Shown here: positions 4,298 to 27,814 of the stretch, in pieces
Layout of the letters: each line of letters begins with the position of its first letter
How positions within the stretch are numbered: position 1 is the stretch's first letter
DNA from: a bacterium
GTDB lineage: Bacteria > Pseudomonadota > Alphaproteobacteria > Rs-D84 > CACZYB01
NCBI GenBank assembly: GCA_024692925.1
Contig: JAILLX010000088.1
Span: forward strand, 152 to 64,151
Length of the DNA: 64,000 nucleotides
Direction: 5' to 3'
Notes under the pieces: model-generated
Seen by the model: the letters and a program-made list of their open reading frames with translations, nothing else
What the model was told of the DNA's origin: nothing
Database searches by the model: none
Program-made: the position numbers and the translations under genes

Positions 4298-4573
4298 TTA
4301 TTTGTTAACAGCATCTTTCAAAGTTTTACCAGCTTTGAATTTTGGTTGTACAGATGCTGGGATCTTAATTTCTTCACCAGTTCTTGGGTTGTGACCCTTT
4401 GTTGCTTTTCTCTTAGAAACTGAGAATGTACCAAAACCAATAAGTTTTACTTCTTCTTTTTTCTTCAAAGCTTTTGTTACAACATTGATGAAAGCTTCAA
4501 CAACTTCAGATGTTTTTGCTTTTGAAAGATCTGTTGCTTCTGCAATAGCATTGATGATATCATTTTTATTCAT
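4298..4573 (-). CDS. hup: HU family DNA-binding protein
   Basis: 91 aa; MNKNDII..IA....LSK; GFGTF..SKRKA..G.NPRTGEEI.IPA signature arm. Confidence 0.9.
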   Translation of the reverse strand: MNKNDIINAIAEATDLSKAKTSEVVEAFINVVTKALKKKEEVKLIGFGTFSVSKRKATKGHNPRTGEEIKIPASVQPKFKAGKTLKDAVNK

Positions 4574-4787
4574 AGTATATCTCCTTTTTAAGTTTTTACC
4601 TTTTCTTATGCATTGATTTTCAACACATACCTAGATTCTAACTATTAAAACACGCATAAGTCAACAAAAAAAGTTCAAAAAACCCTAAAAAACCCTTATT
4701 TTTTCCAAAAAAACGGGTTTTTTAACCTAAATTTTATGATTTGTCCCTATTTTTCAAATAAAAATACAGTCAAAAATCAAAGATTCT

Positions 4788-11111: not shown

Positions 11112-11981
11112 TCATATTTTAAAATCAGTCCTAATTTTAAATGGAATATTAGGCAATTTCCGCACATTTCTTATTCTTCCACCAACAACAGCCGGCATTT
11201 TCACAGGCTCAGCCAAAATTGCACCAGCAACACTATCCAAACCATCATCATGAACATTGCTATCAACATTCCAGTCTGTAAATTCGCCAATAAACGGAGT
11301 ATTTTTCACTGATTCGTTCACAAAAAGATAGCCCGCAGACACAACCGCATCAAACGCATCCAAAATCCTAAGCTCCTTTGAAACCTTTGAAGTTTTTGCA
11401 ACAACAACCGTATCAATTCCCATTTTCAAAAGTTCGGATCTTAAAAACTCTGGTAAAAATTTACCAATACCATTACTTTCAACATTAATAAGCGGTACAA
11501 AATTTCTTTTTAAAAATCGCCCAACACTTTGACATTGATATCGTGCAGATTGCACATCCTCGCCGTCCTTAAAATAAAGATATTCCACATCATGCAGGTA
11601 ATACCGCCCATCTTCATCAATGAAAACAACTGACACAACCGAACCATCACCATTTTTGGAACCATACGCCGGATCCCACCAACAAGACATACTGATAATT
11701 CGTTTATCCATAATGGAAAAGAAAAGTTCCCTATTCCGCTCCTCTCGTTTTATCTCGGCATCATAGAATGAAAGTTTATTCACATCAAACCTTCCATCAC
11801 TAATATCAACCGGACAAAGCATCATCTGGGCTGAAAATTTTTTCATACCAACTGATTTTTTAAGTTGTTCTATTTTCTCCAACGGAAACTTTTCTTCCCA
11901 AACTGACTTTCCATTTTCAATAACCGGAATTTTCAAGACATCATAACCAATCAAAAAAGCATCGAAAACATCATCACTCAT
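11112..11981 (-). CDS. phage terminase large subunit, C-terminal nuclease (RNase H-like) domain only
   Basis: 289 aa; WWDPAYGSKNGDGSVVSVV (beta1 catalytic Asp) and C-terminal HDDGLDSVAGAI terminase signature; ATG overlaps the portal stop (ATGAGTGA). Confidence 0.8.
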   Translation of the reverse strand: MSDDVFDAFLIGYDVLKIPVIENGKSVWEEKFPLEKIEQLKKSVGMKKFSAQMMLCPVDISDGRFDVNKLSFYDAEIKREERNRELFFSIMDKRIISMSCWWDPAYGSKNGDGSVVSVVFIDEDGRYYLHDVEYLYFKDGEDVQSARYQCQSVGRFLKRNFVPLINVESNGIGKFLPEFLRSELLKMGIDTVVVAKTSKVSKELRILDAFDAVVSAGYLFVNESVKNTPFIGEFTDWNVDSNVHDDGLDSVAGAILAEPVKMPAVVGGRIRNVRKLPNIPFKIRTDFKI

Positions 11982-13485
11982 TTTTTACATCAATCAAATT
12001 TTCCGGCACAGAAAATGTCTTTGCAAGCCACAATGCAACCGCCTTTTTATCGACAATATTTGTTGCCTCTGTCCCAAGTTCAGAAAGAGCCTTTATCCAT
12101 GCCAAAATATTTTCCGCATCACGCACCGCCTGATTTTTTGCAAGTGGTGATTGATACTTCAAATCAACCTCATGCCCATCAATAAATATGTCTTCTATCT
12201 CACCCCTGCGTTTCAAAATTGAAACCGCACGAAGAATAACCGGCGTCAAAAATTCAGATTGAAGTCGGCCATATGTTGCACCCAAAATTCGGCTCATCTG
12301 ATTTGTTCGTTCAATAACTTCTGTCGCAGTCATCTTTGCCGAATTAAAAGATAAAATTTGATCCACCAAAAGACTGTGATTTATCTTTGCCCTTAAATCC
12401 GAAAGGACCAATTGCGAAACATCGAAATCCGCACCGGTCCTAAGTGGTGTAAGCCCACTTGACCCCACCGCCTTTGGAATAATTGTTCCCGGAGCCAAAG
12501 TAATATTTTCGATATTAAGGACACCATCATCATCCGCTTGCCAAACACCACTTACTGCAATTGATGCATTTTTAAGGATAAGTTCCACCACCTTATTTGC
12601 AGTTTTTATATCAGGCAAAGCACTCATCACCGGCGATCTTCCATAAATTTCTGATGGTACTTTCATCCATCTGAAACAAATGAACGGTGAGTTTGCAAAC
12701 ACCCCTGTTTTAAGGACAAATTTATGCCCAAGTTTAAGACAATTATTTTCATCAATTACGAATGCAACATAATTATAACCCTGTTGCCCACATGCATTTA
12801 TCCTTGGCAAAACAGCTTCTATCACCGTCACCATTTCATCCGGATTTTTATTTATATATGAAAGTTGTACTTCATCAAATTCAAAATTTGAAAACCTTAA
12901 TTTCAAATTCAAAAGTGAAAGATTTGTCCTTCTGAAAACCGTATCCAACTTACCATTCAAATTTTCCTCTAATGCAATTTCATTCATTGGCACCGCAGTA
13001 AATTTGAATGCAGAAACATCACCAACCTGATTTTCTTCCATAAGCATTACCGCAGTTCCAATAGTAATCAAATCCAAATAACACTGATGAGCTTCCACAT
13101 AAAAATTTGATCTATCGAAATGAGATTGCAAAGTTTTTTGTATCTTTTCCAATTGTTTGTATTTTTCGGATTTTGTATCTGCATCATCAATCACATCAAC
13201 ACCAAACCCAAGTCCAAACCATCGTGACCATGGTGGAGTAAGTTCCGATAAAATACTTCCTGCTAATTTTGCAACACCACTTTCCGCAGTCGAATCAAAA
13301 ATATCAGGACTTTTCTTTTTTGAATATTGCCCACCGGTAAAAAGTCCACCTTTTTGTGGCAAGGCAAAATCATAACATTCATTCCAATCTGGTTCCCACT
13401 CCAACCTTTTTTCCATTGCCAATTTGTATCTTGAATAAATTTTTTCAAGTTCCATTTCATCAACAACATATCTGTTTTCAAGCAT
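11974..13485 (-). CDS. T7 gp8-like head-to-tail connector (portal) protein
   Basis: 503 aa; alignable by eye to T7 gp8 (D..DSTAESGVAKLAG..L..L.PPW region; conserved YGRS motif in VPSEIYGRSPVMSAL). Confidence 0.8.
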   Translation of the reverse strand: MLENRYVVDEMELEKIYSRYKLAMEKRLEWEPDWNECYDFALPQKGGLFTGGQYSKKKSPDIFDSTAESGVAKLAGSILSELTPPWSRWFGLGFGVDVIDDADTKSEKYKQLEKIQKTLQSHFDRSNFYVEAHQCYLDLITIGTAVMLMEENQVGDVSAFKFTAVPMNEIALEENLNGKLDTVFRRTNLSLLNLKLRFSNFEFDEVQLSYINKNPDEMVTVIEAVLPRINACGQQGYNYVAFVIDENNCLKLGHKFVLKTGVFANSPFICFRWMKVPSEIYGRSPVMSALPDIKTANKVVELILKNASIAVSGVWQADDDGVLNIENITLAPGTIIPKAVGSSGLTPLRTGADFDVSQLVLSDLRAKINHSLLVDQILSFNSAKMTATEVIERTNQMSRILGATYGRLQSEFLTPVILRAVSILKRRGEIEDIFIDGHEVDLKYQSPLAKNQAVRDAENILAWIKALSELGTEATNIVDKKAVALWLAKTFSVPENLIDVKNE

Positions 13486-13563: not shown

Positions 13564-15252
13564 TTATTTACTGCTATTATCCTTTTTAAATATTGCCGGA
13601 ATATGCATAGTTTCTTCCATTTTTTGCAACATTTCCATAATATCAGTTTGTTGAGCTTCTTGCTTTTGTTCTTCAAGTCCGCCCGCTAAAAATACGACAT
13701 TATCATCTTCGTGTTTTTCAGTTTTTTCCAATGCTTTCACTTCTAAATTTTCAGATTTCGAAAGCTTTGAATCATCATCACCGAATGTATCAACATCATC
13801 AAAGAAATTATCCTCTTTTGATTCGCCAAGCATATCAAAAAATGATGACAAAGGACTTTTCTTTTTTCCATTACCGCCGTTTGGATCGGTTGGATCATCA
13901 TCGCCATTATCATCATCTTTTTTTGAAACTTCAGCCTCATTCTTTTTTGTAATTTCTTCGGCTTCACGATTTATAAAATCGTCAATACTAAGTGATTCAT
14001 TTTTTTTCATAAAAGCGTCAAAACTATTATCTTCGGTTTGTCCCATATCCTTAAACAAACTTTCAGGTTCAGTTTTTTCATTATCCAAAACAAGTTCGTT
14101 TGCCCCAAGTTCATCAATTGCGACCGAAGGGTCTTTTTCAAATGTTTCGTTATCTATTGGCAAAGGTTTTTCTTCGACTTTTTTCTCTTCCTTTCTATCC
14201 GAAGAAAGAGAAGTCATAAAATCATTCACAACAGGTTTTGTCGCAAAAACATTACCATTTGAAACTGCTTCAGAAAGCCCAGTTGCAATAATCGCCACCT
14301 TTAAATTTTCGCCCATATTTGCATCAAAGCAAGTACCAAGATAAAAGTTTGTTTCATCGCCATCAATTTCACGTCTGATGCTATTCATCACCTCGGCTGG
14401 TTCATCCAAAGAAAGGTTTTCCGGATTCGCAGTAATATTCACCAAAACCGACCTTGCCCCCCTTATATCATTACCGGAAAGCATTGGGTTTTGCAAAACG
14501 CCACTTACTGCCTTAATCGCCCTATCCTCACCACTTTGAACTGATGTACCGATAAGGGTTCTTCCACTTTCCTCCATAACCGCACGAATATCCGCAAAAT
14601 CAAGGTTTATTGTACCTGGGATACGGATTAAATCAGTAATATTTTTCACCCCTTCATAAAGGACATTATCCGAAACCTTAAACGCATTCAAAAATGTCAT
14701 TTGCTTTCCCGCAACATGATAAAGGTTTTGATTAGGAAGCACGATATAAGAGTCCACATTTGGAACCAACTTTGCAATTGCATCGTTTGCAATTTTTTCC
14801 TTTTTCTTTCCTTCAAATTCAAACGGAGTAGTAATAATCGCCACGGTCAAAATTCCCTTTTCCCGAGCAAGCCCAGCAATCACCGGCATTGCACCACTAC
14901 CTGTACCGCCACCCATACCAGCAGTCAAAAAAAGTATATTAGTATTTTTAATTATATCAGAAATTTCGCCACTTGATTCTTCGGCTGCCTTCTGCCCAAC
15001 TTCTGGCCTTGAACCGGCACCAAACCCCTTGGTTGTCTGTTTACCAAGTTGAATTTTTTTCGAAGCCTTTGATTGAATAAGCGATTGTGCATCCGTATTT
15101 GCCACAACAAAATCGACACCATCGATTCCCTGACTAATCATATTATTTACGGCATTACAACCAGCCCCACCAACACCCATTACGGTAATTCGTGGAATAA
15201 AATTTTGAATTTCGTCGTCATTTGATTTATATCCGAAATTTCCTTCAATCAT
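13564..15252 (-). CDS. ftsZ: cell division GTPase FtsZ (long acidic C-terminal linker)
   Basis: 562 aa; ITVMGVGGAGCNAV, tubulin signature LFLTAGMGGGTGSGAMPVIA, NLDFADIRAVM; C-terminal HIPAIFKK resembles conserved DIPAFLR peptide. Confidence 0.92.
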   Translation of the reverse strand: MIEGNFGYKSNDDEIQNFIPRITVMGVGGAGCNAVNNMISQGIDGVDFVVANTDAQSLIQSKASKKIQLGKQTTKGFGAGSRPEVGQKAAEESSGEISDIIKNTNILFLTAGMGGGTGSGAMPVIAGLAREKGILTVAIITTPFEFEGKKKEKIANDAIAKLVPNVDSYIVLPNQNLYHVAGKQMTFLNAFKVSDNVLYEGVKNITDLIRIPGTINLDFADIRAVMEESGRTLIGTSVQSGEDRAIKAVSGVLQNPMLSGNDIRGARSVLVNITANPENLSLDEPAEVMNSIRREIDGDETNFYLGTCFDANMGENLKVAIIATGLSEAVSNGNVFATKPVVNDFMTSLSSDRKEEKKVEEKPLPIDNETFEKDPSVAIDELGANELVLDNEKTEPESLFKDMGQTEDNSFDAFMKKNESLSIDDFINREAEEITKKNEAEVSKKDDDNGDDDPTDPNGGNGKKKSPLSSFFDMLGESKEDNFFDDVDTFGDDDSKLSKSENLEVKALEKTEKHEDDNVVFLAGGLEEQKQEAQQTDIMEMLQKMEETMHIPAIFKKDNSSK

Positions 15253-15398: not shown

Positions 15399-15908
15399 TT
15401 ATTCGCTAATACTTACATTTGACAAAGCATTATTGCAATCTTCTGCCTTATCCATAAGTTCAGCAAGTTCCTTTGTCGATGATGCCGAAAGTGCCACCGA
15501 AACCAGATTTGCACCTGTCGCCACACCCGAAGCAATAGTCGATGCCAACCGCAAATTTTTCAACTTTGCATTATTATCTTTGTTTATATTTGTCTCAGAT
15601 TTTGCATTAGCTTTTTCACCAATTGCTATATTGTCTTTTTCTTCATTAGCCTTAATAATCTTGCCCGCCTTTAACGCAGCCATTGTGGATGTAGTCGCAC
15701 CAACACCACTTGCCACGGTCGCAACACCCGATGTCACACTGGTTCCAATTGATTTTGATTTCACTTCATTAAGCACAGATTTATCAAACACACAAGTGGA
15801 AATTACCGCCTCTATATTCTCAGCCTGCTTTTTAATTTTTGTGGAAGAAAGCTTTGCCTCCGCCCCAGTTGATACAAAAGCCAACAAAACCAAAATTAAT
15901 TTTTTCAT
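15399..15908 (-). CDS. secreted Gly/Ala/Thr-rich protein
   Basis: 169 aa; signal peptide; GVATVASGVGATTS / GVATGANLVS glycine-zipper-like segments; stop abuts the start of the upstream 553-aa gene. Confidence 0.45.
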   Translation of the reverse strand: MKKLILVLLAFVSTGAEAKLSSTKIKKQAENIEAVISTCVFDKSVLNEVKSKSIGTSVTSGVATVASGVGATTSTMAALKAGKIIKANEEKDNIAIGEKANAKSETNINKDNNAKLKNLRLASTIASGVATGANLVSVALSASSTKELAELMDKAEDCNNALSNVSISE

Positions 15909-17569
15909 TATTCTTCTCCATAACTTTCAAGTTCAGCATTATAAGAGTTGTAAAGCAATTTCAATGCCGACATTTTTGACTCACATTCTTGCAAATGCGA
16001 AAGTGCAGAATCCGCAGTCGCAACCGCTGCCAAAGAAAGAGCAAATGTTCCACCCGATGTTAAAAGTGACCCAGCATTAAGTCCCGCCTGTACCCAATCC
16101 AAAGTATGCGAAGTCTTTACATTGCTATCCACCGACTTTTCGATACTTTTTCTTTGAGAAATCTTACTATTGTTTTCTTCTATCTTTTTAATTCTATTCT
16201 CAAGAAGAACTAAACTATCAGTCATATTTGTTAAACCAGTATCGCTAACATAATTAGATGGATTATTTCTTGCATCACTCCAAATCTCAACAGAAATATT
16301 ATCAGCTTCATTTTTCAACTCTGCATACCTTTTTTCATAAGATTTATCAAATTTATCCTTAGAATCATAACTCAAACCATAAGACTGAATTCTTGCCTTA
16401 CAAGAACCTGCTATCTTATCATCGACAAATTCAGGTTTTTTATTATTATCCAACTTTGTATACTTTTTACATTCAGTAATTTTACTTCCATCATTAGACC
16501 ATTTTACACCACCCATTTCACCTTCAAATTTTAAGAAATCGAAAGTTTTTTCATTAACTTTTTTCTCGACTTCTTTATCATTAAGATTTACTCCTAAGTC
16601 CTTCTTTTTTTCTGCAATCTTAGATTCAAGCTCTTCTTTTGCTCTTAATACACAACCCAATTTTTCTGTTGCAAGCTTGCTCTCATCTAACTTAGTACTT
16701 TCAACCAGACTAAGATCTATCGAAGATTTACAATCATCCTTAGTCGACTTATCTTCTTCACCAGAAACATCTGTTATTTTATTATACTGTTCTATTTTCT
16801 TGCCTACCTCGTTGGTCTTCTTAACATTCACAACACCAACTGCGGTTGCACCACCCGAAAGCAACATACCACCAACCGAAAGCCCAGTCGACCAACCAAG
16901 TTGACCTTTCAACTTTTCCATATCGTCATAAAATGCCGAGCAAGAAGACTTTGCATCATTTATCGCACTAACAATCTTTGGCACAAATTCCGCCACATCA
17001 ACAAACTGTTCATAATCAAATGACATATAGTTCACATCGACATCCGACCTTACAATTTTTAAACGGCGGGAAAGTGCAAATGTTTCAAGTTGAGATTTGC
17101 TTGCCTCCACCAATTCAATTGTATACGAATACCCTGCAAGCAATGGCTGACATTCGAACCCAGCCTCTGCACTATACGAAACAATATCCCCAGATGATGA
17201 AATTCCGGTTAGTTTCATATACGGACCAAAGCAAAGTGTTTCATTAAGCCCTGCTGATCCATTTGATTTATAATATGCCGAAACACTAGGGAGCAACATC
17301 GTCGCCAAATCATACTTCACATCATACCTAAGTTTTGTATCAAAAACCGCAGAGTCGGCAATAAACCTATGTGTCGAAGTTTGTATTGATGAACCTGACG
17401 ATGAACTACTTGAACTGGAAGATGAAGTCGATGACCTACTTGCCCTTAATTCAGATGATGATGTTGCACGTTTCGAAGATCTTGTACTTTTCTTCTTTTT
17501 TGCAAAGGCACCATCGCCCAACCCAAGGCAAAGACTTAAAACCAAACCAGAAACAATAACTTTTCTCAT
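15908..17569 (-). CDS. secreted coiled-coil protein with basic Ser/Arg-rich N-terminal module
   Basis: 553 aa; signal peptide, KKKKSTRSSKRATSSSELRASRSS, poly-Ser, long coiled coil, Gly-rich hydrophobic segments; paralogous to 47176..48756. Confidence 0.5.
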   Translation of the reverse strand: MRKVIVSGLVLSLCLGLGDGAFAKKKKSTRSSKRATSSSELRASRSSTSSSSSSSSSSGSSIQTSTHRFIADSAVFDTKLRYDVKYDLATMLLPSVSAYYKSNGSAGLNETLCFGPYMKLTGISSSGDIVSYSAEAGFECQPLLAGYSYTIELVEASKSQLETFALSRRLKIVRSDVDVNYMSFDYEQFVDVAEFVPKIVSAINDAKSSCSAFYDDMEKLKGQLGWSTGLSVGGMLLSGGATAVGVVNVKKTNEVGKKIEQYNKITDVSGEEDKSTKDDCKSSIDLSLVESTKLDESKLATEKLGCVLRAKEELESKIAEKKKDLGVNLNDKEVEKKVNEKTFDFLKFEGEMGGVKWSNDGSKITECKKYTKLDNNKKPEFVDDKIAGSCKARIQSYGLSYDSKDKFDKSYEKRYAELKNEADNISVEIWSDARNNPSNYVSDTGLTNMTDSLVLLENRIKKIEENNSKISQRKSIEKSVDSNVKTSHTLDWVQAGLNAGSLLTSGGTFALSLAAVATADSALSHLQECESKMSALKLLYNSYNAELESYGEE

Positions 17570-17828: not shown

Positions 17829-19016
17829 TTATTTTGAATTATATTCCGATATTCCAAGGAAATCCTCTAATTTTACTGATCCTTTTTTTAAACTTTCCGT
17901 TCCCTTTACAAACATATTGTCACAATCAAGATATCCCTTTAAACGAGTCTGAAGTTCAGAATACCAAGGTTTTTCCTTTAATCCATTAAGTATAAATTTC
18001 AAATTTTCATTCATTTTATTTGAATGATTACGAATAGTCATATCCAAAAATGGGTTATAATCCTTAATACTACTTTCGGAATGTATTTCCGCTATCTTTG
18101 CAAAAGCCGAATACATATCAAAATTTAGTTTACTTCCATCAACAATGCTATTCATAATACTTTTACGCATTGAAAAAAACACACCACCAGAAGTCAAAGT
18201 TTTATAGACATTATCAATATTTTCATCCATTAACTTTTCATTAAACTCAATCAATGAAAGCCCTTCATCTTCCAACCTACTTTCCAAAGATTCGGAATGG
18301 GATTTATTACCACCATCACCCTTTAACCCCATATCATTTGCAATACTTGCAACCTTCACAGAAACATCATCTTCATGGGAAGATACAAATTTTTTCCCCA
18401 TTTCACCCAATGAAAGTTTTACAACATTATCCCTCAAAATATGAAACAATATAGAATTTTTTTCCTCATCCGATTTTGCATTTTCATAATCGAATTTAGT
18501 ATAATAATCAGCTACCTCTAAAATCTGTTTTACCTCATCTTCTGTATAATTCGAAGTTTTATAAACAGCAGAGTTTTTGCCAATTTCATACAATTTATCC
18601 CCTTTTTGTACTGGCTTAACAATAAAGGCATTATCAGGCAACACCAATCCCGTATCAGGATTAGGAATAAACCATGTATCATCTACCGAAACACTTTGTG
18701 GATTTACATTTTTACTAACCAACTCATTATATGGTATCAACACTACAAAAGGAGTTTTATCCCAATTCCCAGCCATATGAGATGTTACCACTTGATTTAA
18801 TGTTACATGCACACTAGCCCTAGGAAGCTTATAATCCGTAGCCATACCAGTAGTTTCAATATATCGCTCGCCATTCAAATTAACCTTTGGCTCATACTTT
18901 GTTGCATGAACACAAACCCAATTTTTCACATCAGACATATAGTCCACTTTGGCTTTTTTATCTTTTAATTCAAAAGATTCTACTTTTTCTAATAATTCCA
19001 TTTTTGCTCCTATCAA
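17829..19016 (-). CDS. hypothetical protein
   Basis: 395 aa intact ORF, no recognisable motifs; lies between the terminase ATPase half and tRNA-Phe. Confidence 0.45.
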   Translation of the reverse strand: MIGAKMELLEKVESFELKDKKAKVDYMSDVKNWVCVHATKYEPKVNLNGERYIETTGMATDYKLPRASVHVTLNQVVTSHMAGNWDKTPFVVLIPYNELVSKNVNPQSVSVDDTWFIPNPDTGLVLPDNAFIVKPVQKGDKLYEIGKNSAVYKTSNYTEDEVKQILEVADYYTKFDYENAKSDEEKNSILFHILRDNVVKLSLGEMGKKFVSSHEDDVSVKVASIANDMGLKGDGGNKSHSESLESRLEDEGLSLIEFNEKLMDENIDNVYKTLTSGGVFFSMRKSIMNSIVDGSKLNFDMYSAFAKIAEIHSESSIKDYNPFLDMTIRNHSNKMNENLKFILNGLKEKPWYSELQTRLKGYLDCDNMFVKGTESLKKGSVKLEDFLGISEYNSK

Positions 19017-20083
19017 AACCCAAAATTATTATAGCATTTTTACAAATCAAAAAACAATAATTAAAAAAAGCAAATATTCCATTCAATTCTAAAGGTAATC
19101 ATTAAAAATATCCTCCATATTTTAAACGAAAAACCAACACAAAAACACCCAACATTTTCCAATCCTCAAATCCATATTGTTCATTTATTGACAAATATTT
19201 ATTTTAGTCCTAAAAATTTGAGAATTCTCGAAAAAAAATAACAAAAAAGTGATTTTTTTATTTGAAATTTAAAAATTAAATTGCTAAAAAAGAACTATGT
19301 TTCGACCGATTCGAGAATCGATTCTATTTTTTACAAAAAGAATCGGTTTTTAAAGTGCTTTTTCTAGTGATTTTTCACTAGACAATTTGATTTTTCAAAA
19401 AGAATCTTAAAATTTTTAACTGATTGATTTTACAGTAAAATTTTTTGTTTTTCTTAGTTTAAAAAGTTGCCAAAAAAAGAATCGCTTGACTTTTTTTGTC
19501 GAGTAGTTTAAGAATCTAGCTATGAAACGAATTTGAAATATATTTTTAAGTTTGTTTTCACAGTTATTCCCTGTTGCGTTCCTTTTCTCTCCTTTCCTCC
19601 TTCTCTCCTCGCAACGGGGAATTTTTTTTATCTTGAGCAAGATATCCGAGTAAACAACCTTCCCTTGCCATTGCAAAGCAAAGGCGTGACAATCCATAAT
19701 AAGACAAACACATCTACTGTCACCCTGAACTTGTTTCAGGGTCCAGATCCCGAAATAAATTCGGGATGACCAAAGTTGGCGGAAATATCCCACTTTACCA
19801 TTACGAGAAATCCTAGAATTGCTGGTTTGTATACTCGGTTGGCTCCGATAAAAAAATCCCTTAAGTCGAGGAGAGAGAGAAAATAAGGAGGGAATGACTT
19901 AAGGGATATACTGGCTTTCACCAGACTTGCCGAAATGAGGGGTCGTCTCGGCAAATTTTGTTTTCGTATTAACGAATTGACTTCATTATACAAATTTATT
20001 TTTCTTTGTCAATATATTTTTGAAAAAAATTTTTATTTGTATAATATTTTTAATTTTTTCAGTAAAATCAATAGGTTTTTATT
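19017..20083. promoter_or_regulatory. ~1.07 kb non-coding region: AT-rich iterated AAAAAGAATC repeats and palindromes, then a GC-richer block of long hairpins
   Basis: AAAAAGAATC at 19335, 19397, 19474 (+AAGAATC 19509); palindromes gagaattctc, gaatcgattc, ctagtga-N5-tcactag; hairpins 19569-19619 and 19858-19905 with complementary CT-/GA-rich 28-31 nt loops. Confidence 0.5.
19719..19743. repeat. palindromic hairpin repeat, copy A (gtcaccctgaacttgtttcagggtc)
   Basis: Same unit as at 41931, 42046, 42377; stem carries a compensatory change (ccctgaa/ttcaggg vs tcctgaa/ttcagga); preceded by shared 18-nt box aatccataataagacaaa (19691-19708). Confidence 0.7.
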
Positions 20084-20683
20084 CTAAGTTTTATAAATTG
20101 TATCCAATGTATGAGGTGTCCCAATAAAAATTTGCATACCATTTGGCACCAAAATAAAGCTATATTCCAAAAGTTTCTCTCTCAAATCTTGTCTTTTTTG
20201 AAAAGTATCGCAATTTTTTGGTACCTCCACATCATCACAAATCACAACATCAGCCCTACTTCCCGTAGCATTAGACATAAGTCCCACCGCCATCATAGAT
20301 GGATCCCGCAAAGCCACATCACGTGCCACGGTAAAACTTCCCGACGCCCACTCTGATTTTTTCTCAGGTCTAATTTCTTCTAACAAAGGAAAAGTTTCAA
20401 TAATTCGCTTAACATTTCTGACCATCTTTTTTGCCAAAACTGTATCCGCCGCAACCACTAAAATCCTAAGGTTCGGATTAGTATATAAAAGCCACGCACA
20501 AAACACACCAACTATTGTTGACTTTCCACTACTTCGAAACGCCATCAAAAGACCTTTTTTATTTTCAGATTTGTAAATATTCAAAAGCCACTTTGCAATA
20601 CGTATATGGTGCGATGGTGTCGAAAGTCCCTGAAATTTATTCCAATCCAAAAGGAATTTTTCAAAATCAACTTTTTCAACCAT
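20084..20683 (-). CDS. phage terminase large subunit, N-terminal ATPase domain only
   Basis: 199 aa; Walker A AFRSSGKST, ILVVAADTVLAKK, Walker B GSRADVVICDDVE, IFIGTPHT: matches Terminase_6N-type ATPase core; ORF stops after the ATPase domain. Confidence 0.82.
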   Translation of the reverse strand: MVEKVDFEKFLLDWNKFQGLSTPSHHIRIAKWLLNIYKSENKKGLLMAFRSSGKSTIVGVFCAWLLYTNPNLRILVVAADTVLAKKMVRNVKRIIETFPLLEEIRPEKKSEWASGSFTVARDVALRDPSMMAVGLMSNATGSRADVVICDDVEVPKNCDTFQKRQDLREKLLEYSFILVPNGMQIFIGTPHTLDTIYKT

Positions 20684-20684
20684 T

Positions 20685-21110
20685 TTATACTATATTCAAA
20701 TCACCAAATGAATCCAACAAATCCAAACTTTTCTTTCGCATAGTCAAAAGATTTTTATTTTTCTTATAGTTATAATTTATATCATTCGAAGCCAAAGCAA
20801 GATCGGAAAAATATTCCTTATTTTTAATTTCATCCTCTGCTTCTCTTTCCATACTACCAAGAAGGACTGCCGAAGACCCATCTGTAAAATCCACACCATT
20901 TGATGCCATCTTTGCTTTTTTACTTGCAACTTTTGATTTAAGAAGGTTTCTTTTTTCCTCCTCATAAAGTTCTTGTTTTTTCCTTAAATTATCCTCTTGA
21001 ATCTTTGCTTCTTTTTTTGCTAATTTTTTTGATTTTTTAGCATCTTGTATATCCATCACGGTTTTCGCAGCAGAAACAACTCCACCAATCACCGCAGCCG
21101 TAGTTCCCAT
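20685..21110 (-). CDS. hypothetical coiled-coil protein (position of T7 gp13-like internal/assembly protein)
   Basis: 141 aa; follows the gp12-like gene as gp13 does in T7; no direct motif. Confidence 0.35.
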   Translation of the reverse strand: MGTTAAVIGGVVSAAKTVMDIQDAKKSKKLAKKEAKIQEDNLRKKQELYEEEKRNLLKSKVASKKAKMASNGVDFTDGSSAVLLGSMEREAEDEIKNKEYFSDLALASNDINYNYKKNKNLLTMRKKSLDLLDSFGDLNIV

Positions 21111-23615: not shown

Positions 23616-23861
23616 CTAAACAACAGAAGATATACTTACTACACCCGCAGTAATCGCACTTACAACAAATATAGTTGTTTCCATTGTTCCATTTATAGAA
23701 GAAGATACAACAATCAAATCACCAACATTATAAATATTTGCAACATCGTTAAAATATCCTGATGTTGAAACAACACTCTTTGCATCTTCTGTTTTATAAT
23801 GCCACAAAGTAAAACCATTCGCATACGCAAGAACAGATAAATTTTTTGAATTCATACTCAT
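23616..23861 (-). CDS. hypothetical small protein between the capsid and tail tubular A genes
   Basis: 81 aa intact ORF; hydrophobic C-terminus. Confidence 0.35.
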   Translation of the reverse strand: MSMNSKNLSVLAYANGFTLWHYKTEDAKSVVSTSGYFNDVANIYNVGDLIVVSSSINGTMETTIFVVSAITAGVVSISSVV

Positions 23862-23896: not shown

Positions 23897-24727
23897 CTAA
23901 GCAATTGTTGCATCATCATCGCAAAGGATTTTTACAATACCTAAATTATCAATAAGTTTTGCACCCTGACTCATACAATTTGATACGAAATGAGATGCTC
24001 TTTCGCCATGCCATGAAATATCAGTTTTTACATCACAACCTGATGCATGACCTATTGCATTTTTGTGATAAATAAAGCAACTACGATTACCATCAGCAAT
24101 TGGCAAAGAATTATGTAAAATCCAATTAATTCCCATCCATTTTCTTGATTCTGTACCTTTCAAAAGAGGATATGAATCACCAACATAATCAGCACTGGAA
24201 AATTCTTCCATACTTAAAAGTTCATTCCATTGATGCACACCAACAACACCAAATCTTTGGCCATCATCCGGCACATCATTTGCATTTAAAAATTCTAATG
24301 CTTCAAAAATTTTTGATTTAGTAAGACCTGTTGAACCGGCACTAACCGCATTTGTTGCTTTATCAAGTTCTGAAATAATAAGTTCATCACTTTTTCTTCC
24401 CAAAGCATACGCACCAGCCGATGCAACAACTCTTCTTTCATCAATGTTTGTTTTAAGTTCATCAAGCTCGTCAACCCAATCCCCAGCATAGTAATCAGTA
24501 AGTACACATTCAACTGGTGTATGATCCAAATTCATCACTGGAACAAGTCCGTGTCTTGATTTAGTCGAAGCAATCCCCTTACCAATTTTTTGAAAAGTTG
24601 TTGAACTACCTCTTACATCATTTTTTGTTCTAACTGTTGAACGAAGTTTTGTTCCCATTTGTTGAAAAGCAAGGTGAACTTCCGCTTCGAATTGTTTTAT
24701 AAATACATTATCAATAGATACTGACAT
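23897..24727 (-). CDS. T7 gp10-like major capsid protein (HK97 fold)
   Basis: 276 aa; FEAEVHLAFQQ..RSTVRTKNDVRGSSTTFQKIGKG..ASAGAYALGRKSDELIISEL aligns to T7 gp10A FGGEVLTAF..SVTTSRHMVRSISSGKSAQFPVLGR..SQLGESLAMAADGAVLAEI. Confidence 0.78.
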   Translation of the reverse strand: MSVSIDNVFIKQFEAEVHLAFQQMGTKLRSTVRTKNDVRGSSTTFQKIGKGIASTKSRHGLVPVMNLDHTPVECVLTDYYAGDWVDELDELKTNIDERRVVASAGAYALGRKSDELIISELDKATNAVSAGSTGLTKSKIFEALEFLNANDVPDDGQRFGVVGVHQWNELLSMEEFSSADYVGDSYPLLKGTESRKWMGINWILHNSLPIADGNRSCFIYHKNAIGHASGCDVKTDISWHGERASHFVSNCMSQGAKLIDNLGIVKILCDDDATIA

Positions 24728-24835: not shown

Positions 24836-25396
24836 TTATTTTTTTACTTTTGTAATAATTGGTTCAATTCCCCTTACAATTCCATGCATCGAAGATATTG
24901 TAAACAAAACAGAAGCAAAAAATAGTACGAAAATTTGCACCGAAGATTCAATCAACTGTTTCGAATATTTTGTTAAAACCAAAAGATCTGTGTAAAACAA
25001 AATTGCAAATGCGAATGATACCAAAAATGAAACCAAAAGTTCGTATTTAAAAGATTTATTAAACACATATTCTATCTTTAATTTTTTCGATTTAATCATA
25101 ACATATTTTAAAATACCACACACAATAATAAAAGGCATAAATACTTTCACAATATTAAAAATTGCATCCACAACACCAATAAACATTATTTCGATTGGGT
25201 TCATTGCAAATCCAACAAGTTTATAAGTTTCCAACTTTTTAACAAAGGATTGTGTAAAGCATAAAATTACAGAAAGTACCAATACTGTTTTAATTATTGC
25301 ACCGGTATGATTATAAAAAAATCCCAACAATTTTCCAAAAAACGAAGATTTTTTATTTTCCTGTTTTCTGGTCTTGTTGGGATCCGAAACTACCAA
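24836..25396 (-). CDS. hypothetical polytopic membrane protein
   Basis: 186 aa; ~4 hydrophobic helices. Confidence 0.45.
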   Translation of the reverse strand: MVVSDPNKTRKQENKKSSFFGKLLGFFYNHTGAIIKTVLVLSVILCFTQSFVKKLETYKLVGFAMNPIEIMFIGVVDAIFNIVKVFMPFIIVCGILKYVMIKSKKLKIEYVFNKSFKYELLVSFLVSFAFAILFYTDLLVLTKYSKQLIESSVQIFVLFFASVLFTISSMHGIVRGIEPIITKVKK

Positions 25397-25404
25397 AGAA
25401 ATTT

Positions 25405-25839
25405 CTACTTCTTTGCTACTTTTTTTTTTGCTACTGGTTTAACAGCTTTCTTAACAGAAGCAACTTTTACAGCAGCTTTCTTAACAACGATTTTCTTTTT
25501 TGCTGGAGCTTTTACTGCAACTTTTTTTGCAGGAGCTTTTTTAGCAACTACTTTTTTAGCAGGAGCCTTTTTAACAGCAACCTTTTTAGCAGGAGCTTTT
25601 TTAGCAACTACTTTTTTAGCAGGTGCTTTTTTAACAGCAACTTTTTTTGCAACTACTTTTTTTGCTGGAGCTTTTTTAACAGCTACTTTTTTAGCAGGTG
25701 CCTTTTTAGCAGGAGCTTTCTTAACAGTAACTTTTTTTACTTCAACTTTTTTAACAGTAGTTTTTTTAACTTCAACTTTTTTTGCAGCTGGTTTTTTAGC
25801 AGCAGGTTTTACAGTTTTTTTAATTATACTTTTAAACAT
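25405..25839 (-). CDS. histone H1-like / Hc1-like Lys-Ala-rich DNA-binding protein (start reassigned to MFKS with AAGGAG RBS)
   Basis: ~144 aa; almost entirely KKAPAKKV(A/V)V decapeptide repeats; pI strongly basic. Confidence 0.72.
   Translation of the reverse strand: MFKSIIKKTVKPAAKKPAAKKVEVKKTTVKKVEVKKVTVKKAPAKKAPAKKVAVKKAPAKKVVAKKVAVKKAPAKKVVAKKAPAKKVAVKKAPAKKVVAKKAPAKKVAVKAPAKKKIVVKKAAVKVASVKKAVKPVAKKKVAKK
25440..25830. repeat. tandem ~30-nt coding repeats inside the H1-like gene
   Basis: gcaggagcttttttagcaactacttttttag... repeated >8x; the antisense ORFs 25297..25909 are artefacts of this repeat. Confidence 0.75.
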
Positions 25840-25929
25840 AATTCTCTCCTTAATTAAAACAAAAGACAATTACAATATACCACATAAAAAAGAATACTGC
25901 AATACTTAAATTAAAAAAATGCAAAAAAA

Positions 25930-26523
25930 TTATTCATCACCATACAAAAATTTAAAACCATCATCAACTTTTTTTATAAAATTTTTATCATTATCTCTCC
26001 AATATTTTGGATCCTTCATCATCTCTTTTAATTTTTCTTCTGTAATGACATCAGCAACTTCACCAGATTTTGCCATAACTTTTGGTTCACCCGAAGTCAT
26101 CATATTGTAAAGTGCAATCACGCCATAAAAAGATGTATTCAAAGATTGATAAATTTCAGCCGGTAAATTTTTATCAGCCCACAAAGAAATTTGTCGTGCA
26201 ATTTCATCAAATCTTTCTTCACCACCAAAATAATTTTCAAGCTTTGATAATTCTTTGTAAAGTTTAAATTCATTAACAACTTCCCTGATTTTTGGAATCA
26301 TAATTTCCGCAGCCAAATCATAAACAAGTTGTGCCTGTTCATTTGTAAATCCTGCAACTTTAAGCCTTTTGTTTACCTCTTCATCAATTGTTAAAAATTG
26401 GCTGTGAAGAACTATTTCATATCCCTTTTCTGCACCATCAGTTTTAAGTGCCAAATCCAAAATATCTTTGTTTGGATTAGTTTGCTTTTCATCCTGTTTT
26501 ATTTCAATTTTTTTATCTTCCAT
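25930..26523 (-). CDS. acidic helical protein, possible capsid scaffolding protein
   Basis: 197 aa; acidic, helical; position upstream of the capsid gene as gp9 is in T7; no direct motif. Confidence 0.3.
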   Translation of the reverse strand: MEDKKIEIKQDEKQTNPNKDILDLALKTDGAEKGYEIVLHSQFLTIDEEVNKRLKVAGFTNEQAQLVYDLAAEIMIPKIREVVNEFKLYKELSKLENYFGGEERFDEIARQISLWADKNLPAEIYQSLNTSFYGVIALYNMMTSGEPKVMAKSGEVADVITEEKLKEMMKDPKYWRDNDKNFIKKVDDGFKFLYGDE

Positions 26524-26637: not shown

Positions 26638-26850
26638 TTATTTTTTTTTAGAATTTAGTTCATCGATTTTTGTTTGCAAACTGTCGGTAAGTTCACGACC
26701 CAAAAATATCACTCCGAACAAAGGAATAATAATCTGAAGTAAATCAATCAAACTTACATCGCCAACCAAATACATCGCAATACAAGAAATAAAACTTACA
26801 ACTGATGTGACCAAAGTTTTTTTATTTTTTAAGCAACCACCAATATTCAT
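26638..26850 (-). CDS. possible holin-like small membrane protein (start at internal MNIGG)
   Basis: ~70 aa; two TM helices followed by charged C-terminus (..LTDSLQTKIDELNSKKK). Confidence 0.3.
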   Translation of the reverse strand: MNIGGCLKNKKTLVTSVVSFISCIAMYLVGDVSLIDLLQIIIPLFGVIFLGRELTDSLQTKIDELNSKKK

Positions 26851-26866
26851 AATAACTCCTTTATTT

Positions 26867-27331
26867 TTACACATAAACATCAAAGAAAGAAAAACCATCC
26901 ACAATAAATTTTGGTTTAACATTGTTTGTTAAAAGATGGCTTTCCAATTTTTTATGAAAAGACAAAATATTTGAAAACTCTTCTTTTAAATTTCCACTTA
27001 ACACTTCATTTGCAATCTTTAAACATTTTTTGAAAACAGAATTATCAACACAAATTTCATCCATCATTTTCAAATTTTTCCAACATCGAAGTGATGTAAG
27101 TTCACTAACCATATTTGGTACATCATCAGAAATTTCCGCCTCAAAAATAAATCTGTTCATCAAAGTATTTGCAATCAATTCAATAAATTTATCACTTGGA
27201 TTTTTTGTTATTGCAAACAAAGTCTTTGCAAAAATAAATTTATTGATATTAGAATTAAGTTTAAGTTTTTTTATAAAATTTTTCTTTTCACCAACAATCA
27301 ATTTATTTACCTCCTGAAATTTTTTCCTCAA
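26867..27331 (-). CDS. hypothetical protein
   Basis: 154 aa ORF; no motifs. Confidence 0.35.
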   Translation of the reverse strand: MRKKFQEVNKLIVGEKKNFIKKLKLNSNINKFIFAKTLFAITKNPSDKFIELIANTLMNRFIFEAEISDDVPNMVSELTSLRCWKNLKMMDEICVDNSVFKKCLKIANEVLSGNLKEEFSNILSFHKKLESHLLTNNVKPKFIVDGFSFFDVYV

Positions 27332-27599: not shown

Positions 27600-27814
27600 T
27601 TTATGATTTTCGACCTAATGGGATAAGGAAATAATTTGCAAGAAAAGAAATTCATTGCAAACTTTTAAAACAACTTAAAAAAGAAATAAAAACGAAAAAG
27701 ACAAAGATTACTTTGGATATACTTATCCCATTAGTTGCCAAACACTATACCACATTTTTATCAAATTGTCAAGAACAAAATTGGAACAAATTTATTTTTC
27801 AAAACAAAAATCTG

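Follow-up and report, generated by a model that had tools for sequence, protein, structure and literature searches.

A lysine-rich repeat protein whose gene sits between those for scaffold and capsid in a T7-like cluster of Rs-D84 alphaproteobacteria: a candidate polycation of head assembly or packaging

The stretch of DNA analyzed here (the window, 64 kb) encodes TyrRS, GroEL, HU, RmuC, Fmt, IF-2 and a GyrB-type topoisomerase. Alongside these housekeeping genes it has a set of phage structural genes, and the window is therefore read as part of a bacterial chromosome in which a T7-like structural cluster is embedded in rearranged form. Within this cluster, a short gene for a lysine-rich protein (the Lys-rich gene) lies between the genes for the scaffolding and major capsid proteins. 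The relevant features are, in descending order along the window:

Upstream of the scaffolding gene, minus strand: gene for a 98-aa protein (phrog_29007), then genes for a 154-aa protein and a 94-aa transmembrane (TM) protein
25930..26523, minus strand: gene for the T7-type scaffolding protein (PF05396), immediately upstream of the Lys-rich gene; product acidic, net charge −10
25874..25902, minus strand: sigma-70-type promoter of the Lys-rich gene, predicted from sequence
25842..25851, minus strand: Shine-Dalgarno (SD) sequence AAGGAGAGAA, ending 2 nt before the ATG, its AAGGAG core (25851-25846) 6 nt upstream
25405..25839, minus strand: Lys-rich gene, 144 aa, with N-terminal MFKSIIKK, a variable repeat core and the conserved C-terminal tail KKKIVVKKAAVKVASVKKAVKPVAKKKVAKK
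24836..25396, minus strand: gene for a 186-aa predicted membrane protein (TM186), starting 8 nt past the Lys-rich stop codon
24778..24811, minus strand: intrinsic-terminator-like hairpin (10 bp, 5 GC pairs) with T-run, between the Lys-rich/TM186 unit and the capsid gene
23897..24727, minus strand: major capsid protein gene (PF19821, E=4e-75); product net charge −9
Directly downstream of the capsid gene, minus strand: 81-aa ORF
Downstream of the 81-aa ORF, minus strand: genes for tail tubular proteins A and B (phrog_394 and phrog_376)
20685-21110, minus strand: internal-virion-protein-like ORF (phrog_418)
20084-20683, minus strand: ATPase half of the large terminase
11974-13485, beyond FtsZ: portal (PF12236)
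11112-11981, beyond FtsZ with the portal: nuclease half of the large terminase
4307-4576: canonical, tail-less HU of 90 aa (PF00216, E=3e-34)

Past the ATPase half of the terminase the cluster is broken by two unknown proteins, tRNA-Phe and FtsZ (13564-15252). No gp15 or gp16 homologues were detected in the cluster with PHROG profiles, and a prohead protease was found there by neither Pfam nor PHROG. The original prediction had considered T7 gp14-16 to be missing; this stands for gp15 and gp16, while the phrog_418 ORF at 20685-21110 is one internal-virion-protein-like gene that the cluster does contain. TM186, for which a family search gave no match, is present in the window's clade only and probably shares a transcript with the Lys-rich gene.

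The predicted ORF of 144 aa on the minus strand (25405-25839) was borne out, as were its position two genes upstream of the major capsid gene on the same strand (capsid 23897-24727, the 186-aa ORF between) and an AAGGAG ribosome-binding site at 25851-25846, with the ATG 6 nt further on. The protein consists of 39.6% K, 22.9% A, 20.8% V and 7.6% P; its 57 lysines face 2 glutamates, the only acidic residues, giving a net charge of +55 and a pI of 11.3. Lysine periodicity peaks at 5 and 10 residues, and the protein is built from KKxxx pentads (KKAPA, KKVAV, KKVVA). Residues 41-110 read KKAPAKKV(A/V)(V/A), in agreement with the decapeptides claimed earlier; the repeats have the N-terminal MFKSIIKK region on one side and the C-terminal VASVKKAVKPVAK on the other. 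This composition bears out the description of the protein as a Lys/Ala repeat polycation of H1/Hc2-like type. At the DNA level, the tandem repeats are not the perfect 30-nt ones of the earlier claim: in TRF the periods are 15, 45 and 60 nt and matches amount to 71-78%, copies compared in register share 60-73% identity (units overall 60-78%), and the longest exact direct repeat is one 35-nt stretch with its second copy 60 nt away. Synonymous codons vary from repeat unit to repeat unit, and an A10 run lies close to the 3' end of the gene. No second Lys-rich ORF of this type is present within the 64-kb window.

Relatives of the capsid protein with 72-93% identity were found on 214 stretches in one-genome-per-species bacterial assemblies, and a further 53 IMG/VR contigs carry the capsid gene. 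The best 80 of the 214 are all gut MAGs, labeled Alphaproteobacteria, Rickettsiales or Ca. Enterousia, with one Muribaculaceae and a few given as bacterium or proteobacterium only; the loci bearing the Lys-rich gene were supplied by gut MAGs of termites, ruminants, horses, chickens and humans. The order Rs-D84, which includes Ca. Enterousia, is uncultured, and its members have genomes of <1 Mb (PMC12306168). The order scaffold-capsid-gp11-gp12-TerL(N) is constant across the related loci, and the TerL(N)-FtsZ-portal arrangement was found again in loci L005, L007, L008 and L190. In Enterousia, capsid identity is 72-75% versus 25-35% for gp11, gp12 and scaffold. Constant gene order, the recurring TerL(N)-FtsZ-portal arrangement and capsid conservation together point to vertical inheritance under selection, that is, to domestication and not to a prophage. 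An exact-sequence look-up of the capsid protein returned no record, and the literature searched on Enterousia/Rs-D84 phages or a T7-like gene transfer agent (GTA) gave no account of the locus.

The linkage of the Lys-rich gene to this cluster was followed in the 79 loci that combine a capsid identity of at least 68% with at least 700 nt of upstream flank. All 79 contain a Lys-rich ORF (K at least 28%, K+A+V+P above 60%) between scaffold and capsid on the capsid strand; a stricter Lys-rich filter misses 16 loci recovered by the other scans. The slot is empty in 11 of 11 informative phage-like loci with capsid identity of at most 62%, among them those of Pelagibacter phage EXVC031P Hodr (47%) and of a phage scaffold from human faeces (62%). 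The arrangement portal-scaffold-capsid, with scaffold abutting capsid, was seen in L122-L125, L127, Hodr and L135, where the upstream genes are identifiable. The empty slot in phage-like relatives indicates that the Lys-rich gene came with, or after, domestication. Scanning metagenomes at large for the conserved 5' region of the gene as found in the window clade gave 34 matches. Six of these enter a full Lys-rich ORF, each flanked by scaffold, TM186 or capsid; a seventh adjoins scaffold and ends at the contig end, the other 27 are chance matches without a Lys-rich ORF, and the scan found no orthologue outside the cluster. Adjacency of gene and capsid in related genomes, which the original prediction had put forward as a check, is thus kept in 79/79 loci and in 6/6 metagenome orthologues. 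These comparisons are best explained by a gene that would have been fixed in the head-assembly segment since the common ancestor of Rs-D84 / Ca. Enterousia.

The same loci bear on the idea that the ORF is no gene at all, only a low-complexity AT-rich repeat open in one frame by accident. Two opposite-strand frames are open too (plus-strand ORFs 25297-25857 and 25307-25909), and no specific family is matched; these plus-strand ORFs are mirror artefacts of the repeat. Against an accident, none of the 79 loci has a closed Lys frame on the capsid strand, however much the length differs, and the SD at fixed distance, the promoter, the terminators and the N- and C-terminal peptides are all conserved. 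An accidental frame is hardly credible on this evidence. Because an ORF of the same kind, with open frame, identical position and retained SD, recurs in every one of the 79 loci, it is not a product of chance; the Lys-rich ORF is a real gene.

Orthologues measure 52-164 aa (median 109) and are in frame in 79/79 loci, with a pooled composition of K 38%, A 30%, V 14%, P 10%, R 0.3% and D+E ~0.5%. In the window clade it is the core that varies, and both the MFKSIIKK N-terminus and the final ~30 residues (KKIVVKKAAVKVASVKKAVKPVAKKKVAKK) are conserved; Enterousia N-termini read MFGLKKKC, MFFGSKKKC or MAFTFLK, and most Enterousia versions have one to three cysteines, often near the termini. Even where capsid DNA is 97-99% identical, lengths differ (97 vs 52, 118 vs 104 and 118 vs 113 aa), so that the repeat-number comparison proposed at the outset did reveal different copy numbers between close relatives. 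This pattern points to selection at the protein level on composition and termini, accompanied by rapid in-frame repeat turnover of the kind described for chlamydial Hc2 (PMC2848022). The original prediction had gone further and proposed a contingency locus, in which repeat slippage toggles the Lys-rich gene or the downstream capsid gene. The varying repeat number among loci with nearly identical capsid DNA and the A10 run near the 3' end would suit such a switch. The repeat unit is 15 nt, however, and slippage by whole units therefore stays in frame; ORFs are intact in 79/79 orthologues, and DNA units merely 60-78% identical disfavor rapid slippage. As every change in length preserves the frame, the locus shows length polymorphism instead of on/off phase variation, and the switch is very improbable.

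The sequence was then considered against known protein families. AF2 run without an alignment predicted no folded domain (mean pLDDT 60, low-confidence strands only). The Pfam HC2 model (PF07382) scored 47.4 bits against a gathering score of 40; this model also annotates tails of HU, RHH, DksA, RsfS and SWIB proteins, and the match is therefore compositional. The NCBIfam models for Hc2 (NF038052, 30.6 against a cut-off of 135) and for the Burkholderiales-type histone H1-like protein (NF038053, 53.2 bits against a cut-off of 80) both scored too low. Pfam found neither the PF00538 winged-helix domain (E<0.01) nor an HU domain in the protein, PHROG gave no match, and a PDB sequence search matched only the K/A-rich N-terminus of Streptomyces HrdB. 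The resemblance to Hc2 and H1 models is one of composition. A large protein search likewise returned only compositional look-alikes, K/A/P tails on HU, RHH, DksA, RsfS and SWIB proteins, and also missed true orthologues; as such searches yield look-alikes only, the presence of the same gene elsewhere is not decidable by homology. A tblastn search of 50,697 phage genomes gave no match, a result made uninformative by the BLAST low-complexity filter. An IMG/VR scan for KKAPAKKVAAKK yielded 35 contigs, among which no head-module precedent was found besides the Enterousia loci; elsewhere KKAPAKKVAAKK occurs as a short tail on unrelated proteins or in a 130-aa protein beside an SNF2 helicase. Similar K/A/P modules on other viral contigs are tails on unrelated proteins or lie beside replication genes, not in head modules.

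The most fitting description is that of a polycationic, disordered repeat protein that stands alone and has evolved convergently with Hc2, the H1 C-terminal domain and the HupB/MDP1 tail. Chlamydia trachomatis Hc2 measures 165-237 aa, is size polymorphic through pentamer number, and its K/A/P repeats bind and compact DNA (PMC2848022). Like chlamydial Hc2 (HctB), the Lys-rich protein is a stand-alone product of Lys/Ala-rich pentamers with copy-number polymorphism. Unlike Hc2, it belongs to another phylum, shows no orthology and is almost free of arginine (R 0.3%); and whereas Hc2 is a developmental-cycle gene of chlamydiae, expressed late in that cycle, the Lys-rich gene sits in a phage-derived head module of an Rs-D84 alphaproteobacterium. 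The C-terminal domain of eukaryotic linker histone H1 is Lys/Ala/Pro-rich and disordered and condenses DNA by charge neutralization. The Lys-rich protein shares this composition and disorder but is bacterial and lacks the winged-helix globular domain and S/TPKK motifs. The disordered tail of mycobacterial HupB/MDP1 is essential for DNA compaction (PMC5676037, PMC5974015, PMC10810275), and the K/A/P repeat tail of Streptomyces DdbA binds and compacts DNA (PMC3643593). The tails of HupB/MDP1, Streptomyces HupS and DdbA have disordered PAKK/KAAK-type repeats like those of the Lys-rich protein and were the top-scoring matches in the protein search; HupB/MDP1-type tails, however, are fused to a folded HU or DksA domain, while here the repeat stands alone and HU is encoded separately. 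By analogy with these systems, the Lys-rich protein probably binds and neutralizes DNA.

The signals around the gene indicate how it may be expressed. Its predicted promoter sits in the 90-nt spacer 3' of the scaffold gene and comprises a TTGCAG −35 element (25902-25897), a 17-nt spacer and an extended −10 element, TGgTATATT (25882-25874). Alignment shows it to be conserved across the window clade, with TGaTATAAT in L001, and the Enterousia clade has TTTACT-17-TAAAAT in the same place. The purine block of the SD before the ATG is kept in nearly all related loci. The extended −10 is shared with a promoter-like site further upstream in the cluster: the 64 kb contain two exact copies of the 10-mer ATGTGGTATA, one in the Lys-rich promoter and the other at 27746-27755, in the promoter-like site before the 98-aa gene. 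Conservation thus marks the gene as having a putative promoter of its own. No terminator was found in the window between the scaffold and Lys-rich genes, so scaffold transcripts should also read into the latter. Downstream, the terminator-like hairpin lies at 24811-24788, 3' of the TM gene and 5' of the capsid gene, and another lies at 23607-23588, after the capsid/81-aa unit. One to three tandem hairpins with differing stem sequences separate the Lys-rich stop from the capsid start in 74/79 related loci, against a chance expectation of ~0.1 per 230 nt. Capsid transcription may depend on a weak promoter of its own or on regulated read-through.

In the Enterousia clade the −10 and the SD are separated by an invariant palindrome, AGAACAAA-N(3-7)-TTTGTTCT. 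Of the 68 loci (12.8 kb each) with this palindrome, nearly all contain it only once, and its invariance and uniqueness suggest separate regulation of the Lys-rich gene in this clade. LexA sites are direct repeats in alphaproteobacteria and the Cheo box in Gram-positives; the GAAC..GTTC palindrome was considered as a LexA box and set aside, its spacing being unlike either. An Rfam search of the region gave no known RNA. The cluster also holds a conserved sRNA candidate.

This architecture raises the alternative of a lineage-specific nucleoid-associated protein, similar to Hc2 or the MDP1 tail, that compacts the cell's own chromosome and whose place in the capsid module is historical. Its task might be global silencing, for instance, or compaction while the cell is dormant or condensed, and it could have arisen de novo from an expanding 15-nt AAA-rich unit in a well-transcribed intergenic region. 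A conserved promoter of its own, a strong SD and dedicated terminators are typical of a small gene with independent, high expression; the 1-3 hairpins shield the capsid gene from its transcription, and the operator-like palindrome at the Enterousia promoter is gene-specific. The sequence look-alikes are all tails of chromosomal DNA-binding proteins (HU, RHH, DksA, RsfS, SWIB), and Hc2 displays the same pentamer-number polymorphism (PMC2848022). For a particle role, plain membership of an operon would be a neater fit than an own promoter and terminators, the terminators before the capsid gene could mean that the Lys-rich gene is expressed when the capsid must stay silent, and its conserved position could in part be mere inertia, the gene being very small and lodged between two others under selection. 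Nevertheless, the scaffold-capsid position is kept in 79 loci and 6 metagenome orthologues despite differing chromosome context and the insertion of a TM gene, the slot is empty in relatives resembling free phages, and read-through from the scaffold operon is unobstructed. The canonical HU at 4307-4576 means, moreover, that the Lys-rich protein is not needed as a basic nucleoid protein. A chromosomal role is the main alternative, and one that we consider rather unlikely.

The data lead us to favor, tentatively and at somewhat less than even odds, a non-specific DNA-binding polycation that was recruited to head assembly or packaging. DNA binding is suggested by composition and by the characterized analogues, while head association and the loading route are what we infer from the setting of the gene. 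A head role is favored by the strict positional linkage, by the slot being empty in free-phage relatives, by predicted co-transcription with the acidic scaffold, by conserved termini as possible docking signals and by the presence of a separate HU. Against it, capsid and scaffold are only slightly more acidic in the loci that bear the Lys-rich gene, with overlapping ranges and a small comparison group, no PHROG family matches the protein, and the similar modules of other viral contigs lie outside head modules.

In the model we propose for this head role, transcription of the gene would start at a strong promoter of its own and also reach it from the scaffold operon by read-through, and translation from a strong, conserved SD would yield an abundant disordered polycation. 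Contacts between lysines and phosphates would allow sequence-independent nucleic acid binding, with neutralization or condensation. Protein-coated DNA cannot pass a portal, and pre-loading into the procapsid together with the acidic scaffold (net −10) is therefore the most plausible route. The hydrophobic N-terminus (MFKSII, MAFTFL, MFGL) or the conserved C-terminal tail may act as the docking element. Inside the head, the protein would act as a counter-ion for incoming DNA, in the manner of T4 internal proteins and polyamines.

T4 provides the nearest precedent for such loading: its heads contain ~1000 internal-protein molecules brought in via the scaffolding core, whose lysines touch DNA phosphates, and a short N-terminal targeting sequence directs IPI-IPIII into the prohead (PMC3012670). 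The Lys-rich proteins are likewise basic and encoded with head genes (79/79 loci), and they too have a short conserved hydrophobic N-terminus (MFKSII, MAFTFL, MFGLKK). The T4 internal proteins are folded, processed by the prohead protease and chiefly anti-restriction cargo. The Lys-rich protein differs in being unstructured, without sequence similarity to them, and encoded in a cluster without a detected prohead protease. The T7 core of gp14, gp15 and gp16 is a structured multi-protein cylinder for DNA ejection. The Lys-rich protein would likewise occupy the head interior, but it shows no likeness to gp14/15/16 by PHROG or Pfam and no AF2 fold. With neither a predicted fold nor similarity, it is not a structural substitute for this core; the suggestion that it replaces the internal core is thus not upheld, as a structured core is not replaceable by an unstructured polycation. 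A head role also has against it the published view that in tailed phages basic proteins contribute little to DNA charge neutralization and find little room (PMC3281028).

A polycation could also be directed at the envelope, either as an outer-membrane-permeabilizing lysis accessory of the polylysine or 'disruptin' type or as a particle-surface adhesin for anionic mucus or cells. The operon directly upstream has a weak SleB-type cell-wall-hydrolase match (PF07486, E=1e-4, below cut-off; seen in L029) along with a small TM protein that might be a holin; the window-clade gene precedes, and is probably co-transcribed with, a membrane protein gene, and the habitat is a mucus-rich gut. The protein itself speaks against such a function: signal peptide and amphipathic helix are both absent, proline recurs at intervals of roughly 10 residues, there is no predicted folded domain to serve as an anchor, and its length (52-164 aa) and composition fit DNA-binding tails and not known disruptins. 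The normal place of decoration genes is after the capsid gene, and here that slot is already taken by the 81-aa ORF. An envelope function is accordingly improbable.

H1-like repeat proteins are already known in bacteria. One fixed in a phage-derived head module across an order of reduced-genome symbionts is undescribed in the searched literature, where searches on H1-like proteins in capsids and on Enterousia/Rs-D84 phages gave no description of the locus. The prevailing view is that tailed-phage capsids pack naked DNA, with ions and polyamines neutralizing it and basic proteins playing a minor part (PMC3281028). A histone-like polycation locked into a phage-derived head module would challenge this view, though for a domesticated lineage only, and a head role would offer a handle on how bacteria re-engineer capsids after domestication. 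A more specific form of the head reading, which we regard as doubtful, is that of a GTA-like, T7-derived particle with a dedicated 'protamine' that was acquired at domestication, is loaded in advance together with the scaffold and condenses the DNA cargo. Were this so, it would be the first case of a capsid derived from a tailed phage in which a histone-like protein, beyond ions and polyamines, neutralizes DNA, and the protamine may offset the metabolic poverty of genomes of <1 Mb or a weakened, split terminase. If the protein is instead an ordinary nucleoid protein, it adds one more convergent H1-like repeat protein, and the surrounding cluster becomes the more interesting object. The locus also marks a T7-like element that spans an order of gut alphaproteobacteria with very small genomes and is undescribed in the literature searched, and the cluster is of interest in itself for its split terminase, interleaved housekeeping genes, hyper-conserved capsid and sRNA candidate.

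In these genomes of less than 1 Mb, the phage-derived capsid protein is, as judged by sequence comparison, under unusually strong constraint. Capsid proteins (window 23897-24727; loci L001-L118) are 72-93% identical over more than 200 species genomes, while the scaffold and the tail tubular proteins A and B (gp11 and gp12) from the same loci share only 25-35% identity and FtsZ fragments in capsid-bearing loci 43-80%.

Conserved elements also precede the capsid gene and the lysine-rich repeat gene (25405-25839, minus strand in the window) in Enterousia loci:

About 45 nt 5' of the lysine-rich ATG (e.g. L029 5416-5437; loci L009-L117): palindrome AGAACAAA-N(3-7)-TTTGTTCT
About 230 nt from the lysine-rich stop to the capsid ATG (e.g. 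L029 5758-6000): capsid leader

The palindrome lies between the −10 element and the Shine-Dalgarno sequence (SD) of the lysine-rich gene in 68 Enterousia-type loci, nearly all of which carry a single copy per 12.8-kb locus; it is absent from the window's clade. Throughout these 68 loci its arms are invariant and its centre is variable, suggesting either a protein operator or a 5' hairpin constrained in sequence. The leader is likewise conserved and dense in structure, with two or three terminator-like hairpins whose stems covary, one of them being TTCAGTCAGAT...GTCTGACTGAA-T6, followed on the 3' side by the conserved blocks GGATAATCC, GGACCC and TGGCGC..GCATAACCA. Such an arrangement may provide attenuation or antitermination control over capsid expression. 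The lysine-rich proteins themselves contain one to four cysteines in 66 of 80 orthologues (e.g. L029 5464-5757; L060; L069). In Enterousia these are often grouped close to the termini (MFGLKKKCAC..., ...KKPCAKKACAKKK), reminiscent of the cysteines through which protamines cross-link; the protein of the window itself is cysteine-free.

The large terminase of the window is encoded in two parts, with a cell division gene between them:

11112-11981, minus strand: nuclease half of the large terminase (phrog_38 match)
13564-15252: FtsZ
15908-17569, minus strand: 553-aa protein, between the ATPase half and FtsZ
17829-19016, minus strand: 395-aa protein, between the ATPase half and FtsZ
20084-20683, minus strand: ATPase half of the large terminase (phrog_38 match)

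The break falls at the ATPase/nuclease boundary, and each half remains an intact ORF, the two covering positions 270-459 and 468-712 of phrog_38. The roughly 8 kb between them hold FtsZ, tRNA-Phe and two unknown proteins. There is an 8-nt overlap between the nuclease half and the portal stop. The order ATPase half, FtsZ, portal recurs in L005, L007, L008 and L190, and in no Enterousia locus does the nuclease half follow the ATPase half; in the phage-like locus L125 both halves are present and contiguous. Neither the 553-aa nor the 395-aa protein has a match in Pfam, PHROG or NCBIfam. The former is kept beside the cluster in L002 and L003, and both could be particle components otherwise missing, for instance fibres or ejection proteins.

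Downstream of the ATPase half lie two further elements:

About 19850-20014, minus strand: candidate small RNA, just 3' of the ATPase half, with promoter, hairpins and terminator
19416-19793, minus strand: 125-aa ORF, between the candidate small RNA and the 395-aa gene

Equivalents of the candidate small RNA, which has no match in Rfam, are found in L001 (10711-10893), L002-L006, L010 and L194. Its promoter is a perfect TTGACA-17-TATAAT, two of its three hairpins show compensatory changes, the 28-nt terminator loop AUUCCCUCCUUAUUUUCUCUCUCUCCUC is invariant, and the RNA folds with a z-score of −3.6. The CU-rich loop shows complementarity to SDs rich in purines; target prediction places gp12 (−24.3 kcal/mol), FtsZ, GroEL and the IVP-like ORF (phrog_418) at the top, and the lysine-rich gene 9th of 129. 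The 125-aa ORF looks spurious as a gene, yet related loci match its translation at 50-79% whichever orientation is read, which suggests a conserved element that is non-coding or read in another frame.

A second, GC-rich lineage (L119-L121, from IMG/VR) has a capsid 60% identical and a differently rearranged gene order (terminase nuclease half ... capsid, gp11, gp12, portal). These loci show no scaffold match and no lysine-rich gene upstream of the capsid, and may represent an independent domestication.

Smaller ORFs accompany the structural genes of the window:

23616-23861, minus strand: 81-aa ORF, directly 3' of the capsid gene and 5' of the terminator at 23607-23588
24836-25396, minus strand: TM186, a 186-aa multi-pass membrane protein without family match
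26638-27331, minus strand (L029 4056-4738): 149-154-aa protein and small TM protein, 5' of the scaffold

TM186 is inserted between the lysine-rich and capsid genes, starting 8 nt past the lysine-rich stop and sharing its terminator, and is confined to the window's clade (L001-L008, L010, L178, L181, L185, L194, L200). The 81-aa product is a candidate decoration or head-completion protein, and a gene of similar size stands at the same post-capsid position in Pelagibacter phage Hodr. The 149-154-aa protein and its small TM partner may form an endolysin/holin pair within one operon, the L029 version of the former having a weak match, below the cut-off, to the SleB-type cell-wall hydrolase family PF07486 (E=1e-4).
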